The notes below the pieces were generated by a model that was not told the DNA's origin, searched no databases, and saw nothing but the letters and a program-made list of their open reading frames with translations. A stretch of 33,885 nucleotides of DNA from Desulfosoma sp. (GTDB taxonomy: Bacteria; Desulfobacterota; Syntrophobacteria; Syntrophobacterales; DSM-9756): the NCBI GenBank assembly GCA_037481835.1, contig JBBFKW010000022.1:1-33885 (forward strand), read 5' to 3'. The position numbers and the translations under genes are program-made. Shown here in pieces: positions 7,377 to 15,191 of the stretch. Every line of letters begins with the position of its first letter. Position 1 is the stretch's first letter.

Positions 7377-8294
7377 ATGGTGAAAGGTGATGACGTCAGA
7401 TCGGGTTTCGTCGTTTTGGTGGGGGCGCCCAACGTGGGAAAATCCACGCTCATGAACCAGGTGCTCAAGGAAAAGATCAGCATCACGTGCCCCAAACCCC
7501 AGACGACGCGAAACCGGATTCTCGGCATCTACAACACGGCTCGCTGCCAGATGGTTTTCGTGGACACGCCGGGTATTCATCGAGCGCGCGACAGCTTCAA
7601 TAAAATCCTTGTGGAGACGGCGTTAAGCGCCTTGGCCGACGTGGATGTCATCGCCTTTATCGCGGATGTGACGGCCAAGGGAACGGACCTGGACCGGTTC
7701 GTCCTCCAGGCCATGGAAAAACTCACCGTCCCGGTGGTGCTTGTGCTCAACAAGGTGGATCTTCTCAAAGACAAAGGGGCCCTGCTGCCGCTGATCCAAC
7801 GCTTTGCGGAGATGCGTGATTTTGCCGCCGTCGTGCCCGTATCGGCCCTCAAGGGCCATGGGGTGGAGGAGCTGGTGGCGGAGTTGGAAAAGCTTCTTCC
7901 CGAAGGGCCCCGCTATTACCCCGAAGATGCCGTGACGGACCAGCCGGAACGGTTCCTTGCGGCCGAAATCGTTCGGGAAAAGGTGTTTCATCTGACCGAG
8001 GAAGAAGTTCCCTACGCGACGGCGGTTACGGTAGACGTGTTCAAGGACGAGCCGGAACGAAACCTGGTGCGCATCGAAGCGACCATCCATGTGGAGCGGG
8101 ATTCCCAAAAGGGGATCGTCATCGGCAAGGCCGGGGCGAGGCTTAAAGAAATCGGCCGGCAGGCCCGGGAAGGCTTGGAACGGCTCTTGGGATGCCGGGT
8201 ATACTTGGGCCTTTATGTGCGCGTGCAGAAAAACTGGCGGCGTGACCGGCGGGTGCTGGGGGAGTTCGGCTACCGGGTGCCGCGGAAAGGGTAG
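7377..8294 (+). CDS. era: GTPase Era
   Basis: GAPNVGKSTL, PQTTR, DTPG, NKVD and KH domain with SQKGIVIGK. Confidence 0.97.
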   Translation: MVKGDDVRSGFVVLVGAPNVGKSTLMNQVLKEKISITCPKPQTTRNRILGIYNTARCQMVFVDTPGIHRARDSFNKILVETALSALADVDVIAFIADVTAKGTDLDRFVLQAMEKLTVPVVLVLNKVDLLKDKGALLPLIQRFAEMRDFAAVVPVSALKGHGVEELVAELEKLLPEGPRYYPEDAVTDQPERFLAAEIVREKVFHLTEEEVPYATAVTVDVFKDEPERNLVRIEATIHVERDSQKGIVIGKAGARLKEIGRQAREGLERLLGCRVYLGLYVRVQKNWRRDRRVLGEFGYRVPRKG

Positions 8295-8343
8295 GGGGAA
8301 GGCGTCGGGCGGGCTGAAGTGCAGGGGACGGCTGGTTGAAAAA

Positions 8344-8461
8344 TCACCGCAGAGACGCAGAGGACGCTGAGGCGGGGTGCACGAAAATCGTGCGGCCCGT
8401 TTTGTTTCGGGCCGGTGCGCTGAGAGGCCGCCGCGGCCCGAGGCCGCGCCCCTTCGGGGCG
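8344..8461 (+). repeat. Structured repeat copy A (CACCGCAGAG family), solo, downstream of era
   Basis: Head TCACCGCAGAGACGCAGAGGACGCTGAG 8344-8371; hairpin 8372-8400; stem-loop 8407-8441 with loop CTGAGAGGC; CGCCCC-TTC-GGGGCG 8447-8461. Confidence 0.85.
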
Positions 8462-8620
8462 ACTGGGATGGCCGGGGCCCGCATCAATTCGTGATTTCGA
8501 CGAGAAGAGGATCGTCCCCCACCCGCCGAGCGTTCGGGATAGAGAATCTCGGCGGGCGAGGCCCCCCCTTCCAAGATGCGGCACTGGCGGCATCATTCCG
8601 GGACTCGGGCCGTGTCAGGA

Positions 8621-10582
8621 TCAGCGCTCCTGGAGGAGGCGGTCCACGGGGAGGTAGACGGCGCCCATGCGGCGGGCGATTTCATAGGCGCAGCCGCCGG
8701 CCATGGGATCCAATTCCGTGTCCACGAAGACGGCCTGGATGCCGTGGCGCCGGACTTCTCGGGCGTAATGAAAGGTTTCGTCCACGGGATCCGCCCCGAA
8801 GGCGCTCATGTTGGGCCGCCCGTCGGAAAAAAGGAGCATGACGGGGACGGTTTCCGGGTTCTTGCGCTTTTCCTGCACGAGGAGCCGAAGGCCGAGATGG
8901 AGCCCCAGGGCGAGGGGCGTTCGGCCCCCGACGGGCAGCGCGTCCACGGCCGATGCGGCATCGCGGATGTTGTGGGTGATCGGCAGCAGGACTTCCGCCG
9001 TCGTGTGCCGGAAGGTCACAATGCCCAGTTTGTCCCGCCGCAGGTAAAGATCGCGAAGGAGGGCGTCGATCACCCCTTTGGTGATGGACATGCGGTCGTT
9101 ACTGCGCATGCTGGCGCTGGAATCCACGACCAGGACCAAGGAAAGGCCCGTCTTGCGCGAGCGCTTCCGAAGCCGGATGTCCTGAGGCAAAAGAATGGGC
9201 CGGCCGTTTCCGTTTCCGTGATGCCGAAAAGGCTGATAGGGGGCGGCGGCCCGAAGGGTTCCCAGAAGGGAGAGGTGGGCGGCGTCTTCCCCGGATGCGG
9301 GGTGCCGAACGCCGTAAACCGTTCCCGAATGCTTGGAAAGCGGAAGCGAAAACCGCCGGCCGGGATGGGTGCCCGGATCGATCCGGTGCCACGGCATGGA
9401 GGCGATCACGGTGCGGCTCGTGGGACAAAGATGCGTCACGCATTCCACGGGCGATGCGTACGTTTTTCCGGTGCCGGAGCTTTTCGGCACATTGTGATGC
9501 ACGGGGACCCAGGGCTGCACGTCCCCGGATCCCGCGCCCGTTTCCGACTGCAGGAGATCCTTCAGTTTTCCTTCATCCAGATCCGCCTTTTCCAAGGGGG
9601 TTTTCTTCACCCGGTGCGGGAGCACGAGCCGGGCGGCCAGGTGGAGGTCATCCGCACAGACGGACTCCCGCCCTTCCAGAGCGGCGTTGGCGCGCGCCGC
9701 CTTGATCATGGCGATGTCCGCCCGATGGCCGTCCGTGCCCATGGCCAGGGCGATGCGGGAGGCGAGCTGGAGGAGCTCTTCCGTAAACCCGATGGTCAGG
9801 AGACGTTCCCGGGCGCATCGGATGCGTTCGGCGAGGGCGCGGTCTTCGGCGGCCCATCGGGATCGAAATCCTTCCGGGTCGGCTTCGAATTCCAGCCGGC
9901 GTTTCACGATTTCCACGCGGTCTTCCACCGAGTCGATCCCCCGGATGGTGACCGACAACCCGAAACGGTCCAGGAGCTGGGGCCTAAGGTCCCCTTCTTC
10001 GGGGTTCATGGTGCCCACGAGGATGAATCGGCTGGCGTGGCTGAAGCTGATCCCTTCCCGTTCCACCACGTTTCGCCCCGATGCGGCGGCATCCAAGAAG
10101 AGATCCACGATTTGGTCGTTCAGGAGGTTGACTTCGTCCACGTAAAGGATGCCCCGGTGGGCGTCGGCGAGCAGGCCCGGTTCGAAAGCCTTCTTTCCGG
10201 TTTTCAGGGCCTTTTCGATGTCGATGGTGCCGAGCAGGCGGTCTTCGGTGGTGCCGATGGGAAGATTGACGAGCCGAACCGGGCGTTCCACGACGGGAAG
10301 GGTTTCGCCGGACTCGGCCCGATCCCGGCACGACGGGCACCACTCGTCGGGGGCGTCCGGATCGCAGCGGAACGGACAGTTTTCCACGACCCGGATCGTG
10401 GGCAAGAGATCCGCCAGAGCGCGCACTCCCGTGGATTTGGCCGTGCCCCGTTCCCCCTTGATGAGGACGCCGCCGAGGGACGGGTCCACTACGTTGAGGA
10501 GCAGGGCCCGCTTCATGAGGTCTTGCCCGACGAGGGCCGAAAAGGGGAAAGTCCGTTCCGCTGCAGAGAGTCGTTTCGTCAT
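8621..10582 (-). CDS. Chelatase subunit, ChlI/BchI-type AAA+ domain fused to a vWA domain (ChlD/BchD-like; possibly cobalt chelatase)
   Basis: [58 protein letters not shown]; v[22 protein letters not shown]. Confidence 0.9.
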
Positions 10583-10603
10583 GGTGCCCGGGGCTCTATC
10601 CTG

Positions 10604-11014
10604 TCAATGGTCGTCGCGTTGGCACAGTTCCACGAGGACGCCGCCGGTGGCCTTGGGGTGGAGGAAGGCGATGCGGGCGCCTCCGGCCCCTTTTCGGGGC
10701 GTCTGGTCGATGAGCAGCACGCCCTTCGCTTTCAGTTCTTCTAAGGCCGCGTCGATGTCGTCCACGCGGAAGGCGATATGATGCACCCCTTCGCCCTTTT
10801 TTTCAATGAACTTGGCCACGGGACCGTCGGGGGCGGTGGATTCCAGGAGTTCCACTTCCGTGTCGCCCACGGGGAAGAAGGCCGTGGTGACCTTTTGTTC
10901 TTCCACGGTTTCCCGGCCGTGGTCGGGCAGGCCCAGGAGGCCGTGGTAGATCTTGGCTGCTTCGTCGATGGATTTTACGGCGATGCCGATGTGGTCCACT
11001 TTGAGTACTCTCAT
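10604..11014 (-). CDS. mce: Methylmalonyl-CoA epimerase
   Basis: VDHIGIAV, VELLE, GEGVHHIAF, FLHPK..GGVLVEL; mutase operon context; SD GGAGG. Confidence 0.93.
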   Translation of the reverse strand: MRVLKVDHIGIAVKSIDEAAKIYHGLLGLPDHGRETVEEQKVTTAFFPVGDTEVELLESTAPDGPVAKFIEKKGEGVHHIAFRVDDIDAALEELKAKGVLLIDQTPRKGAGGARIAFLHPKATGGVLVELCQRDDH

Positions 11015-11072
11015 GGGGATCCTCCTTGGTGAGTGGGTTGGTGGTTGGTTGATCGTTCGAAAAAAGAAAATT

Positions 11073-11721
11073 CACCGCAGAGACGCAGAGGGCTCAGAGG
11101 CAGGGGCGCACGGTCCGTGCGCCCCTGCAGGCGCTGTGGCGCTGAGACGCCGCCACAGCGCCCGGCCCCGCGCCTTCGGCGCAATCCGGCTTTCCCCGGC
11201 AGGGGAGAGCGCGGCCCCCGCCTGCGCCTTAGCCCCGGGTGGGGGTGAGCACGATGCGGTGGATCCCGTCTTTCAGCACGGGGGTGTTGAAGTTGATCAA
11301 AAGGCCCACGGGGCAGCCCGTGAGCCGCAGGTACGTGAGCACCTGGGCCGTGTGGATGGGTTCGATCCTTTCGCACGCTTTGAGCTCCACGATGACCGTC
11401 TCTTCCACCAGAAAGTCCAAGCGGTAGCCGCAATCCAGGGTTCGTCCCTTGTAGGCGAGGGGGAGCGGATGTTGGCGCCTGTAGGAGACACCCCGGAGGT
11501 TGAGTTCATGGGCCAGGCATTCTTCGTAGGCGGATTCCAGAAGGCCCGGTCCCAAGTGCCGGTGCACCTCAATGGCCGCACCGATGATCGCCGAGGTGAT
11601 TTCGTTGACTTCCATGGCGCCCCCTCTAACGGGAGGCGTGCGCGAAGCGCCGGCGCTTTGGGGCGCGGCGGCGTCTCAGCGCCGCGCCCCAAGCCTCTGC
11701 GGCCTCTGCGCCTCTGCGGTG
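11073..11721. mobile_element. Candidate GxxExxY nuclease cassette bounded by inverted structured repeats (copy B 11072-11182 +, copy C 11640-11722 -)
   Basis: Inverted 28-nt heads, conserved internal hairpins, AAATT direct repeat at 11068-11072 and 11722-11726; interrupts meaB-mce. Confidence 0.6.
11229..11615 (-). CDS. GxxExxY protein (PD-(D/E)XK nuclease superfamily)
   Basis: IIGAAIEVHRHLGPGLLESAYEECL (GxxExxY), YRLDFLVEETVIVELKA (D...ExK), QVLTYL, GLLINF; 128 aa; SD GAGGGG. Confidence 0.95.
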   Translation of the reverse strand: MEVNEITSAIIGAAIEVHRHLGPGLLESAYEECLAHELNLRGVSYRRQHPLPLAYKGRTLDCGYRLDFLVEETVIVELKACERIEPIHTAQVLTYLRLTGCPVGLLINFNTPVLKDGIHRIVLTPTRG

Positions 11722-11725
11722 AAAT

Positions 11726-12679
11726 TTATTCCTTGAGCCACCGAGCCAGCACGCCCTGCACGGCCCGGTAGGGGCTTTCCCGCTTTTCCGCGATGGCTTC
11801 CACCAGCGCGTCCAGTTCCCCGTCGGCTTTGAGCCGATCCCGAATGCGCCGGAACAGTTCCCCGTGGATCATCTGGAGCGTCTCTTCCCGGGCGCGGCGC
11901 CGCCTCTTTTCTTCAAGGGCGCCCGATTCTTCCAGAAACCGCCGGTGGGACCGGATTGCGTCCACCAGGTTGTCAATCCCTTGGTCTTCCACCGCCACCG
12001 TTTTCACCACGGGCGGGGTCCAGGGCCGTTCCCGAATGTGGGCGTCCTGTTCCACGCGGGTCGTCACTTCCGCGTAGAGCTGGTCCGCACCGGGCCGATC
12101 CGCCTTATTGATCACGAAAATGTCGGCGATTTCCATCACGCCGGCTTTCATGCTCTGGATCGTATCGCCCAGTCCGGGGACCAGGACGAGGCAGGTCGTA
12201 TCGGCCAGCCGAATGATGTCCACTTCGTCCTGGCCGACCCCCACCGTTTCGATGATGATGACGTCTTTTCCGAAGGCGTCCAGCACCTTGACGACTTCGC
12301 CCGTGGCCTTGGCCAAGCCCCCGAGGAACCCCCGCGTGGCCATGCTCCGGATGAACACCCCCGGGTCCGTGGAAAGGCGGCTCATGCGCACCCGGTCCCC
12401 CAGGACCGCACCGCCCGTAAAGGGACTGCTGGGGTCCACGGCGATGATCCCCACGGTGAAACCTTCGCGGCGCAGGGCGAAGGTGAGCTTGTCCGTCAGG
12501 GTGCTCTTTCCCGCTCCGGGCGATCCCGTGATCCCCACGATGTAGGCCCGGCCCGTGTGGGCATAGAGCCGTTCCATCTCCTTCACGGCGCGCTCGTCTT
12601 CGTCTTCCAGCCAGCTGATGAGGCGCGCCGCGGCTCGAGGCGATCCCGCCAAGACTTGTTCTGCGTAATCCTGACCCAT
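11726..12679 (-). CDS. meaB: Methylmalonyl-CoA mutase-associated GTPase MeaB/ArgK
   Basis: GITGSPGAGKSTL, AVDPSSPFTGGAVLGDRVRM, ETVGVGQDE, NKAD; SD GGAGGGG before ATG 12679. Confidence 0.95.
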   Translation of the reverse strand: MGQDYAEQVLAGSPRAAARLISWLEDEDERAVKEMERLYAHTGRAYIVGITGSPGAGKSTLTDKLTFALRREGFTVGIIAVDPSSPFTGGAVLGDRVRMSRLSTDPGVFIRSMATRGFLGGLAKATGEVVKVLDAFGKDVIIIETVGVGQDEVDIIRLADTTCLVLVPGLGDTIQSMKAGVMEIADIFVINKADRPGADQLYAEVTTRVEQDAHIRERPWTPPVVKTVAVEDQGIDNLVDAIRSHRRFLEESGALEEKRRRRAREETLQMIHGELFRRIRDRLKADGELDALVEAIAEKRESPYRAVQGVLARWLKE

Positions 12680-12689
12680 GACCCCTCCG

Positions 12690-13097
12690 CTAGTCGCGGC
12701 GGCGGACGTTTTGTTTGATGAATTCCACGATCTTGGCCGTGGGTGTTCCCGGGCCGAAGATTTCCGCCACACCGGCCTTTTTCAGCTCCGGGACGTCTTC
12801 CGACGGGATGATGCCGCCGCCGACGACGAGCACGTCGTCCAGGCCTTTTTCCTTCAGGAGCTGCACGACCCGGGGGAAGAAGTACATGTGCACCCCCGAA
12901 AGGCTGGACAGGCCCACCACGTCGGCGTCTTCCTGCAGGGCGGTTTCCACGATCATTTCCGGGGTTTGTCGAAGGCCCGTATAGACCACCTCCATGCCGG
13001 CTTCGGCGAAAATGCGCGCCAACAGCTTGGCGCCGCGGTCATGGCCGTCCAAGCCGGGTTTCGCCACGATGATCTTGATCTTTCTTTGTTCCGTCAT
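12690..13097 (-). CDS. Methylmalonyl-CoA mutase small (cobalamin-binding) subunit
   Basis: [11 protein letters not shown] (DxHxxG), SSL, GGGIIP, FGPGT. Confidence 0.95.
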
Positions 13098-13136
13098 GGC
13101 TGTCGCTCCTCCACTTTATTGACGCGAAACGGCACA

Positions 13137-13230
13137 GCGCTTCGCGAAGCGCACGTTCTTGGGGCTCGGCGGCTTATCAGCACCGCACCCCAAAGGAAGT
13201 TTCTCTGCGATCTCCGCGCCTCTGCGGTGA
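13137..13230 (-). repeat. Structured repeat copy D, solo, between the two mutase subunit genes
   Basis: Minus strand: TCACCGCAGAGGCGCGGAGATCGCAGAG (13230-13203); TTGGGGTGCGGTG-CTGATAAGC-CGCCGAGCCCCAA (13193-13159); GCGCTTCGCGAAGCGC (13137-13152). Confidence 0.85.
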
Positions 13231-13237
13231 ATATTCC

Positions 13238-14917
13238 TTACACGAATTCCTTCGGCCGGTATTCCCCGAAGATGTCCCGCCACACGTCGCAGATTTCGCC
13301 GATGGTGGCCCGCGCTTTCACCGCTTCGATGACGGCCGGCATGACGTTTTCATCGGATTGGGAGACTTCACGCAGTTTGTCCAATGCCGCCTTCCACTTG
13401 GCCTGATCACGTTCGGCGCGCAATTTCTTGAGCTTGGCCGCTTCGATTTCCCCCACCTTCATGTCGACTTTCAGGAGGTTGGTGGGTTCCGGTTCTTCCA
13501 TGGTGTACTTGTTGATCCCCACGTAGACCCGTTCCCCCGTTTCGATTTCTTTTTGGAACCGGTAGGCGCTGTCCTGGATTTCCTTCTGGATGTATCCCTG
13601 TTCGATGGCCGCCAGGGTTCCGCCCATGGCGTCGATCTTCTTGATGTATTCTTCGATGTCCGCTTCGATCTTGTCCGTCATGGCTTCCACGAAGTAGGAC
13701 CCGGCCAGGGGATCGATGGTATCCGTTGCGCCGCTTTCTTCCGCTACGATCTGCTGGGTGCGCAGGGCCACCGTAACGGCTTCCTGGGTGGGCAGGCACA
13801 GGGCTTCGTCGTAGGAATTGGTGTGGAGCGACTGGCAGCCGCCCAAGGCCGCCGCATAAGCCTGCAGGGCCACCCGGACGATGTTGTTCAGGGGCTGCTG
13901 GGCCGTGAGGGTCACACCGCCCGTCTGCACGTGGTAGCGCATCATCATAGATCGCGGGTCCTTGGCGCCGAAGCGTTCCTTCATGATGCGCGCCCACACG
14001 CGCCGCCCGGCCCGGAACTTGGCCACTTCTTCCAGGACGTTGGTAAAGGCGTTGAAGAAGAAGCTCAGGCGCGGGGCGAAGCTATCCACGGCAAGACCGC
14101 GGTCCACGCAGGCCTGCACGTAGGCGATGCCGTCGGCGATGGTGAAGGCCATTTCCTGGGCCGCCGTGGATCCCGCTTCCCGGATGTGATAGCCGCTGAT
14201 GGAAATGGTGTTCCACTTCGGCACGTGCTTGAAGCAGTAGTCGATCAAATCCACCGTGAGGCGCATGCTGGGTTTGGGCGGGAAGATGTATTGGCCGCGG
14301 CAGATGATTTCCTTGAGGATATCGTTTTGGACCGTGCCACCCACCTTGTCGAAGGGCACGCCCTGTTCTTCGGCGATGGCGAGATACATGGCGAGAAGCA
14401 CGGTGGCCGGCGCGTTGATGGTCATGGAGGTCGTGACCTTATCCAGGGGGATGCCGTCGAAAAGGATTTTCATATCGTCCAGGGAATCGATGGCCACCCC
14501 CACCTTGCCCACTTCGCCCATGGACAGGGGATGGTCGCTGTCGTATCCCGCCTGGGTGGGCAGGTCGAAAGCCACGCTCAGGCCCGTCTGACCCTGTTCC
14601 AAGAGGTAGCGGTACCTCTTGTTGCTTTCCCGGGCGTTTCCGAACCCGGCGTACTGCCTCATGGTCCAGAACCGGCCGCGGTACATGGTAGGCTGCACCC
14701 CCCGCGTGAACGGAAACTGGCCCGGGTAGCCCAGGTCCCGTTCGTAGTCCAGACCCTGGACGTCCAGCGGCGTGTAGAGCCGTTCGATGGGCGTTCCCGA
14801 AATGCTCGTGAAGACCGACTTGCGTTCGGGCGCCTTGGGCAGGGTTTTGGCCAGGATGGTTTTTTCCCAGTTGTCTTTTCCGGCCCGGATACGTTCCAAT
14901 TCCTTGTCGTCAAACAT
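13238..14917 (-). CDS. Methylmalonyl-CoA mutase large (substrate-binding) subunit
   Basis: PGQFPFTRG, WTMRQYAGF (Tyr typical of methylmalonyl-CoA mutases), GLSVAFDLPT, QNDILKE, ISISGYHIREAG, QSLHTNSYDEA; SD GAGGAGG. Confidence 0.95.
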   Translation of the reverse strand: MFDDKELERIRAGKDNWEKTILAKTLPKAPERKSVFTSISGTPIERLYTPLDVQGLDYERDLGYPGQFPFTRGVQPTMYRGRFWTMRQYAGFGNARESNKRYRYLLEQGQTGLSVAFDLPTQAGYDSDHPLSMGEVGKVGVAIDSLDDMKILFDGIPLDKVTTSMTINAPATVLLAMYLAIAEEQGVPFDKVGGTVQNDILKEIICRGQYIFPPKPSMRLTVDLIDYCFKHVPKWNTISISGYHIREAGSTAAQEMAFTIADGIAYVQACVDRGLAVDSFAPRLSFFFNAFTNVLEEVAKFRAGRRVWARIMKERFGAKDPRSMMMRYHVQTGGVTLTAQQPLNNIVRVALQAYAAALGGCQSLHTNSYDEALCLPTQEAVTVALRTQQIVAEESGATDTIDPLAGSYFVEAMTDKIEADIEEYIKKIDAMGGTLAAIEQGYIQKEIQDSAYRFQKEIETGERVYVGINKYTMEEPEPTNLLKVDMKVGEIEAAKLKKLRAERDQAKWKAALDKLREVSQSDENVMPAVIEAVKARATIGEICDVWRDIFGEYRPKEFV

Positions 14918-14951
14918 GATGACCCTCCTCGATCGCTTTCCGCGTTGGCCC

Positions 14952-15004
14952 AAAAAACGCCCGGGGCCGCCGAAGGGAAACGCCCCTTCGGGCCGGCGGG
15001 CGTT
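14952..15004 (-). terminator. Terminator-like hairpin plus U-tract in the leader of the mutase operon
   Basis: AACGCCCG/CGGGCGTT outer stem and CCGAAGGG/CCCTTCGG inner stem; T6 on the minus strand overlapping the stem base. Confidence 0.45.
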
Positions 15005-15191
15005 GAAAACGGTATCGGCGTGGAGACGTATTGACAAGAAAGGAAGACGACGCTACGGGCAAGGCAAGGCTAAGGGTGTGCGGCGTTTGGGGAGGAAAGG
15101 AGAAGCCCGTCACGTCTTTTGTCCCATCGTTTGCGCGGGAAAGGGAATCGACCGCTGGATAAGCCGCATGAACCTGCGCAGGAACGATTTT

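Follow-up and report, generated by a model that had tools for sequence, protein, structure and literature searches.

A GxxExxY nuclease gene carried between inverted, hairpin-bearing repeats in a methylmalonyl-CoA mutase operon of Desulfosoma

Architecture of the unit at the meaB-mce junction

The 33,885-nucleotide stretch of Desulfosoma sp. analysed here (the window; contig JBBFKW010000022.1, assembly GCA_037481835.1) contains a minus-strand operon made up of the large and small subunits of methylmalonyl-CoA mutase, meaB, a 128-residue open reading frame (ORF) and mce. The 128-residue product belongs to the GxxExxY family of PD-(D/E)XK proteins, and its gene lies within a unit (11073-11721), or cassette, whose ends are inverted copies of a short repeat, here called heads, followed inwards by hairpins. 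As described below, this unit is gained and lost as a block, is copied within genomes, and has truncated and gene-less derivatives whose ends are those of the complete unit; arrays without a gene are far more numerous than the genes and are common almost only where the GxxExxY family is present. The features are collected in Table 1.

The heads start with CACCGCAGAGACGCAGAG at 11073 (+) and with CACCGCAGAGGCGCAGAG at 11721 (-), and each consists of three 8-nt words. The head pattern has four matches in the window against 0.18 expected, a number reached in none of 100 shuffles. The longest inverted repeat pairs 11064-11106 with 11688-11730 (43 nt, 84% complementary). GC-rich hairpins lie inside both heads, and at both ends a CTGAGA loop is present on the strand that reads inwards. 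The 14-bp hairpin of the gene-distal end has no counterpart at the opposite end here; a counterpart is present in two relatives. Two further heads, not recorded at first pass, at 8345 (+) and 13229 (-), carry the same hairpin modules and no gene, and are referred to as solo ends. The ribosome-binding site of the mutase small subunit comes directly after the hairpins of the latter, and the GCGCC-TTC-GGCGC module recurs in the solo end at 8345 and in gene-less copies. In general, each end is composed of an A+T-rich edge, three words of 8-9 nt, each RCRRAG with 2-3 nt added, and GC-rich hairpins whose loop is conserved. A first-pass annotation of the window had placed both heads at the right coordinates and had described the same hairpin modules at each end, which is true of the CTGAGA hairpin and not of the 14-bp one.

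The sequence AAATT stands on both sides of the unit and, as also noted at first pass, its right-hand copy overlaps the meaB stop codon, of which 11726 is the last base. This stop codon is native, since it is also found in relatives without the head. AATTT stands on both sides of the copy in one relative, two other relatives lack it, and no consistent direct repeat surrounds the seven gene-less copies of one relative, the flanks of which are A+T-rich (GAAAWTT / AATTYTC). These observations do not establish AAATT as a target duplication; the flanks could be a target preference or a terminal sequence, which cannot be told apart. Once 11073-11721 is excised, about 62 nt remain between the two host genes (about 57 at first pass); the 23 cassette-free junctions described below measure about 30-100 nt between protein matches.

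Table 1. Position, strand and supporting evidence of the cassette, the solo ends and the genes of the operon.
Feature	Position	Strand	Evidence
Solo end in the era / Mg-chelatase-like spacer: head and three hairpins, without gene	8344-8470	+	
mce, methylmalonyl-CoA epimerase, glyoxalase fold, downstream host gene	10604-11014	-	ORF and profile matches
AAATT, A+T-rich flank outside the gene-distal head	11068-11072	.	read directly
Gene-distal (3') head, three 8-nt words, CACC-GCAGAGAC-GCAGAGGG-CTCAGAG	11073-11099	+	pattern and repeat search
Hairpin 1, perfect 14-bp stem	11100-11128	.	compensatory variant seen in one relative
Hairpin 2, conserved CTGAGA loop module	11130-11162	.	covariation across 29 copies
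Small GCGCC-TTC-GGCGC hairpin	11170-11182	.	read from sequence
GxxExxY / PD-(D/E)XK gene, 128 aa, AGAGGGGG upstream of ATG	11229-11615	-	profiles, alignment, model
Hairpin 2', gene-proximal (5') end, 13-bp stem, CTGAGA loop on - strand	11658-11692	.	
Gene-proximal (5') head, CACC-GCAGAGGC-GCAGAGGC-CGCAGAG	11695-11721	-	pattern and repeat search
AAATT, A+T-rich flank; 11726 within the meaB stop codon	11722-11726	.	
meaB, mutase-associated GTPase, upstream host gene	11726-12670	-	ORF and profile matches
B12-binding mutase small subunit	12690-13097	-	ORF and profile matches
Solo end between mutase large and small subunits: head and hairpins, without gene	13100-13230	-	
Methylmalonyl-CoA mutase large subunit	13238-15037	-	ORF and profile matches

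The 128-residue protein matches PF13366 (PDDEXK_3) over positions 1-117 of 117 (E 1.1e-45, 155.2 bits, cut-off 22) and TIGR04256 (GxxExxY; E 1.9e-47, 160.4 bits, cut-off 35). In an alignment of 75 relatives the motif that names the family (G24, E27 and Y30) is invariant or nearly so, and the D...E-x-K triad (D67, E77 and K79) is invariant, in agreement with the intact D...ELK-type triad that had been read from the sequence at first pass. No transposase domain was recognised in the unit by Pfam and TIGR04256-type profile searches, PF13366 being the sole Pfam match, and here too the earlier reading stands. The AlphaFold model of the protein (pLDDT 94.8) shows a restriction-endonuclease-like fold. 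Its top matches in a wide structural search are restriction enzymes, Cas4 and Hjc, with Z scores of 5-8 (best 7.9), all below 8; these matches single out no subfamily, and the predicted fold is that of a generic nuclease. A Foldseek search of the model against the PDB returned nothing at E 0.001 or better, a sequence search against solved structures gave no match at E up to 0.01, and PADLOC reported a weak Cas4 match alone (E 0.009). The function of PDDEXK_3, a large family found across phyla, is given as unknown in the part available to us of a 2012 survey of the superfamily (PMC3424549). Papers that name the GxxExxY family do so in passing, and no functional study of GxxExxY, PDDEXK_3, PF13366 or TIGR04256 was found in the literature, supplements not covered.

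Descent and copying of the unit

The meaB region was taken from 30 of 41 searched genomes, the window's own included. The cassette is intact at the meaB-mce junction in three of them, which belong to two genera. One congener has it as a pseudogene, with frameshifts, stop codons and degenerate heads, and a second congener has it cut off after about codon 58; only remnants of it persist in two more genomes. At the other 23 junctions, which come from two further genera of the family and from 21 genomes of a sister family, the spacer is short and shows nothing of the cassette. A match of 45% identity at the congener's junction was considered as an independent insertion and rejected, as it is the frameshifted pseudogene with degenerate heads in the same place. 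The discrete unit of gene plus ends that the first-pass annotation had proposed is supported by its absence from the junction in the outgroup genera.

Among the three intact copies the GxxExxY protein is 92-94% identical, compared with 87-90% for MeaB. The ratio of non-synonymous to synonymous divergence (dN/dS) is 0.08-0.14 for the cassette gene, indicating purifying selection; the neighbours have 0.11-0.16 (meaB) and 0.13-0.22 (mce). Synonymous divergence (dS) is 0.22-0.41 for the intact cassette genes and 0.17-0.68 for their neighbours, and a cassette dS of 0.41 against 0.34-0.68 for the neighbours indicates co-divergence with the operon. The junction states across the 30 loci, and dN/dS and dS values similar to those of the neighbours, show one old insertion into the meaB-mce spacer, predating the split of the two genera, and subsequent vertical descent, under purifying selection or with decay. 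The locus is a useful case: across seven related genomes, a single insertion can be traced in its intact, pseudogenised, truncated and remnant forms.

Every one of the seven genomes from the two genera has the solo head between the mutase subunits, or a degraded remnant of it; none of the 21 other loci read for this spacer does. In the sister-family relatives (L015-L033) the mutase small subunit and meaB are separated by a non-coding spacer of 140-480 nt; this spacer is about 20 nt long in the family of the window.

Copying of the unit is seen in this genome, where a 605-nt unit (hairpin, gene, hairpin) is found at two unrelated loci with 95% identity and the homology ends at the unit edges. 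Two truncated cassettes stand in tandem in the era-chelatase spacer of a congener, at the site where the window has the solo end at 8345 alone, and this pair has a deletion junction common to the congener's own meaB-mce copy. The three truncated copies are 90-91% identical mutually and 69-71% identical to the cassette of the window. The shared deletion junction and the mutual identity of the three indicate that a defective derivative reached other loci by copying or conversion.

In 27 kb taken from one sister-genus genome there are seven gene-less units, each 133-203 nt long. Their layout (head, hairpins, hairpins, inverted head) is that of both cassette ends minus the gene. One gene-less unit lies between two transporter genes in two genomes, and the same spacer in two other genomes, this genome among them, is about 50-85 nt long and contains no unit, the divergence being too high for an exact empty site to be read. 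Among the junctions, gene-less copies and transporter spacers compared, no near-identical filled/empty pair was found by which the ends, the target or a duplication could be defined. The first-pass annotation had called the unit a candidate mobile element, and its duplicated, truncated and gene-less derivatives are in line with this; this copy itself, judging from its dS, is no recent insertion. Likewise, the cassette-free junctions that it had anticipated in relatives exist, and a near-identical empty site with a single AAATT was not among them.

That gene-less and filled units have the same outer ends would also be expected of a homing-type nuclease gene, for which the gene-less hairpin is the target, is cut, and then receives the gene by repair from a filled copy. 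PD-(D/E)XK homing endonucleases are known. However, a filled/empty allele pair with matching ends at one locus was not found, and the gene-less copies, which outnumber the filled ones by about 20:1, have not been converted; we consider homing a very improbable explanation.

A partial tandem duplication is present in a complete relative genome (L146, about 1150-2050), where a second copy of the 3' half of the gene, with its own hairpin and head, directly follows the 3' head of the only intact cassette. In two relatives (L116, L124) the era-chelatase spacer contains an extra gene, absent from the window, for a protein of about 180 residues with repeated FEQIDKR-like heptads and a hydrophobic segment.

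Word arrays and GxxExxY genes

The genome to which the window belongs has four GxxExxY genes, and all four have inverted word-array flanks. The other three are flanked by three-word inverted arrays of the GCAAAG and CACAGAG types, which form full palindromes on both sides. The array pattern has 50 matches in this genome and 13 in a reversed-genome control, and 14 of the 50 are located at most 300 nt from the four genes, that is, in 0.1% of the genome. Exact copies of CACCGCAGAG number 12 in the 3.63-Mb genome, and only the four window heads extend into arrays; a fifth array of the window-head type, with one word changed, is found on contig C9 upstream of a csrA-like ORF.

The association was also examined in a cross-phylum sample of 80 relatives from named genomes of many phyla, 74 of which had sufficient flank. 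A bracketing inverted repeat with a score of at least 14 is present at 63 of the 74 loci and in 2 of 140 shifted controls, a contrast that is somewhat flattering, as some of the shifted controls lie in coding DNA, where inverted repeats are scarcer. The words have a period of 9 (31 loci), 8 (19), 11 (8), 10 (4) or 7 (1), and the commonest are ACAGAG (22 loci) and GCAGAG (16). The repeat enrichment beside GxxExxY genes that had been predicted at first pass is therefore observed both in this genome and across phyla. The same annotation had named a gene fixed at this locus, with no such enrichment, as the finding that would speak against it; enrichment is present, and the cassette is missing from 23 of 30 junctions.

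Some arrays of this genome lie apart from GxxExxY genes. A single head array of the GCAAAG type (contig C1, 91438-91463; L002:2982-3007) is not in a spacer and is apparently in frame in the C-terminal part of a DegT-type aminotransferase-like ORF (QPVFGASRKDAKAQRGG…VAEGLFERGLCLPSG). Solo TCGCGCAAAG arrays at C2:262145, C3:164368, C15:68222 and C17:68731 precede a block, a few hundred nucleotides long, that they have in common and that includes a palindrome of the form GGTTGGGGT…ACCCCAACC; this block looks like a second repeat family attached to heads.

A census of arrays and genes was made in the 41 related genomes with a strict word pattern and a backwards control. In total, 1312 arrays were found, compared with 88 control matches and 66 genes or gene fragments. 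Genomes that match PF13366 (27 of them) have a median of 27 arrays, and those that do not (14) a median of 1 (Mann-Whitney p 1.3e-5, a value overstated by kinship, since the genomes are not independent samples). One complete relative genome has 153 arrays against 2 in the control, and 95 of the 100 arrays listed for it start with an ACRRAG word, which is the head word type of its single intact gene. As a specificity control, four-helix-bundle (PF05635) genes were inspected in three relatives, and none of six has an array within 400 nt; this genome has no such gene. A four-helix-bundle gene was accordingly rejected as an alternative cargo of the same heads.

These observations bear on the possibility that the cassette is passive, the repeats being recombination or insertion sites used by another system (an unlinked enzyme, or host recombination acting on palindromes) and GxxExxY the usual cargo with a job of its own, for example as a defence or addiction nuclease. 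The generic restriction-endonuclease fold, with restriction enzymes and Cas4 as top matches (Z 6.5-7.9), and the weak Cas4 match in PADLOC are in keeping with such a role; protein similarity is only weakly coupled to word type (see below), and the tandem arrays and partial duplications at heads resemble recombination products. However, arrays are scarce in gene-free genomes, the other small-gene family checked carries none while each of the four GxxExxY genes here carries heads, and no further conserved gene accompanies the unit at the loci read. A merely passive cassette is thus regarded as unlikely.

Action on DNA or RNA, and comparison with known systems

It is also conceivable that the unit acts at the level of RNA, in the manner of the intervening sequences of 23S rRNA. 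The heads would then pair into a stem enclosing the ORF and be cut by RNase III, which would release or destabilise the insert; the words and hairpins would act in the RNA as signals that govern its processing, its stability or the loading of ribosomes, and the nuclease would be cargo or would itself act on RNA. A precedent is the Coxiella intervening sequence, which, in the available part of its description (PMC4990558), is 428 nt long, contains an ORF, is excised by RNase III and is vertically maintained. In the window, the sense RNA of 11060-11735 folds with its ends paired around the ORF (-366 kcal/mol; z = -9.3, 20 shuffles), as any inverted repeat would. The cassette gene is co-oriented with the mutase operon and no sigma-70-like promoter was found inside the cassette; three of the four window heads are sense-directed and lie just past a stop codon, and solo ends are kept within operons across two genera.

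The pattern of substitutions, however, gives no sign of selection for RNA pairing between the arms. Mismatches between the sense-strand arms at the 63 loci comprise 78 of the G.U type, 92 of the A.C type and 133 transversions, that is, without preference for G.U; a comparison of mismatches in the spacer between words (13.8% vs 12.7%) was uninformative, the classing of columns being crude. Arm differences among the three intact orthologous copies are, by eye, not compensated. In contrast, the CTGAGA hairpin covaries across 29 copies, with 95.1% of cells paired compared with 73.9% in shuffles and 35-45% with slid partner columns; 9 of 12 pairs have changed on both sides, and G.U pairs account for 2 of 348 cells. 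Such Watson-Crick-only pairing appears to fit a DNA palindrome read on both strands better than an RNA read on one. An RNA-level element would in addition leave the copying to new loci and the hundreds of gene-less copies unexplained, and we judge it improbable. A terminator role found no support, the scan giving 6 sites against 6.1 expected, which is chance level, and positions 8000-14000 matched no Rfam family at E up to 1.

Among the known systems closest to the unit are the REP/REPIN-RAYT repeats. There, according to the part of the published account that was available (PMC3116915), a single small gene lies between inverted copies of a short structured repeat, scattered extragenic inverted doublets without the gene far outnumber it, the repeats are largely confined to genomes that bear the gene, and the gene has a long history of vertical inheritance under purifying selection. 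Same-type gene-less counterparts of the present copy in the window's genome are three solos. The GxxExxY system differs in its enzyme, a PD-(D/E)XK fold of about 125 residues where RAYT is a HUH Y1 tyrosine transposase; in its repeat, a tandem array of 8-9-nt words plus hairpins where REP is a single palindrome; in the presence of several copies of the gene in some genomes; and in the 60-72% identity of GxxExxY relatives across phyla, which points to horizontal spread.

The 23S rRNA intervening sequences resemble the unit in having a small ORF of unknown role enclosed by terminal inverted repeats capable of pairing into a long stem, and in having been acquired once and kept vertically, with decay of the ORF in some lineages, as far as the accessible portion of the source goes (PMC4990558). 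In contrast, the site here is the meaB-mce spacer of an mRNA operon and not helix 45 of rRNA, the ORF is of the GxxExxY family and not an S23p / four-helix-bundle protein, gene-less and duplicated copies occur at many loci, and selection for RNA pairing between the arms is not apparent. With insertion sequences and their miniature inverted-repeat derivatives (MITEs) the unit shares terminal inverted repeats, internally deleted non-autonomous derivatives and presence/absence polymorphism; it differs in that it has no transposase of a recognised family, that a target-site duplication is not demonstrated here, and that its ends are word arrays with subterminal hairpins. The unit thus resembles all three classes and belongs to none, because it has no HUH enzyme, does not lie in rRNA and encodes no known transposase.

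The best-supported reading, to which we give an about even chance of being correct, is that the unit at 11073-11721 is a resident copy of a widespread partnership of repeat and nuclease, built like REP/RAYT around a different enzyme fold. The nuclease would recognise the word arrays or the hairpins of its own ends and nick or cut there, host replication or repair would then copy or delete the unit, and the gene-less copies could be served in trans. Expression would probably depend on read-through of the host operon; the first-pass annotation had likewise suggested that the unit rides on operon transcription, with which its orientation and the lack of a promoter-like site agree. That the nuclease itself moves the element, as had also been put forward, is an inference.

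Several observations weigh against a repeat-and-nuclease partnership. The present copy has stayed in place since the divergence of the two genera, and heads of its type are rare in this genome, where they form two cassette ends and three solos. The conservation of solo ends inside operons could reflect a role at the level of the host. Protein similarity follows word type weakly, with identities of 61.9% and 60.2%, and 11 of 2000 permutations are as high. Five gene-bearing genomes have two arrays or fewer, one gene-free genome (G021) has 22 arrays and no PF13366 match, and the near-identical filled/empty pair mentioned above is missing. Genome G021 has one four-helix-bundle gene, which is without arrays.

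In a broader and more tentative form of the repeat-and-nuclease reading, which we hold to be somewhat less probable than even, GxxExxY proteins would be the sole enzyme of a widespread class of mobile or replicative DNA, in which a nuclease of about 125 residues maintains a cassette and tens to hundreds of gene-less copies per genome. If so, the REPIN-RAYT way of life would have been invented twice, independently, and a function would be provided for a very large protein family that has none. Action of the nuclease on its own repeats, if real, would account for the patchy distribution of the family, for the intergenic repeats that disturb assembly and annotation, and for the extra sequence inside tight operons; a second fold would also join the small set of enzymes known to sustain long-lived repeat populations. 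A literature search, supplements not covered, found no description of such an element, no report linking PD-(D/E)XK proteins with extragenic palindromes and nothing relevant under STRR repeats.

Elsewhere in the window, a 722-residue open frame (8576-10744, +) lies antisense to a 653-residue Mg-chelatase-like gene (8621-10582, -) and is most likely spurious, a product of the high-GC DNA.

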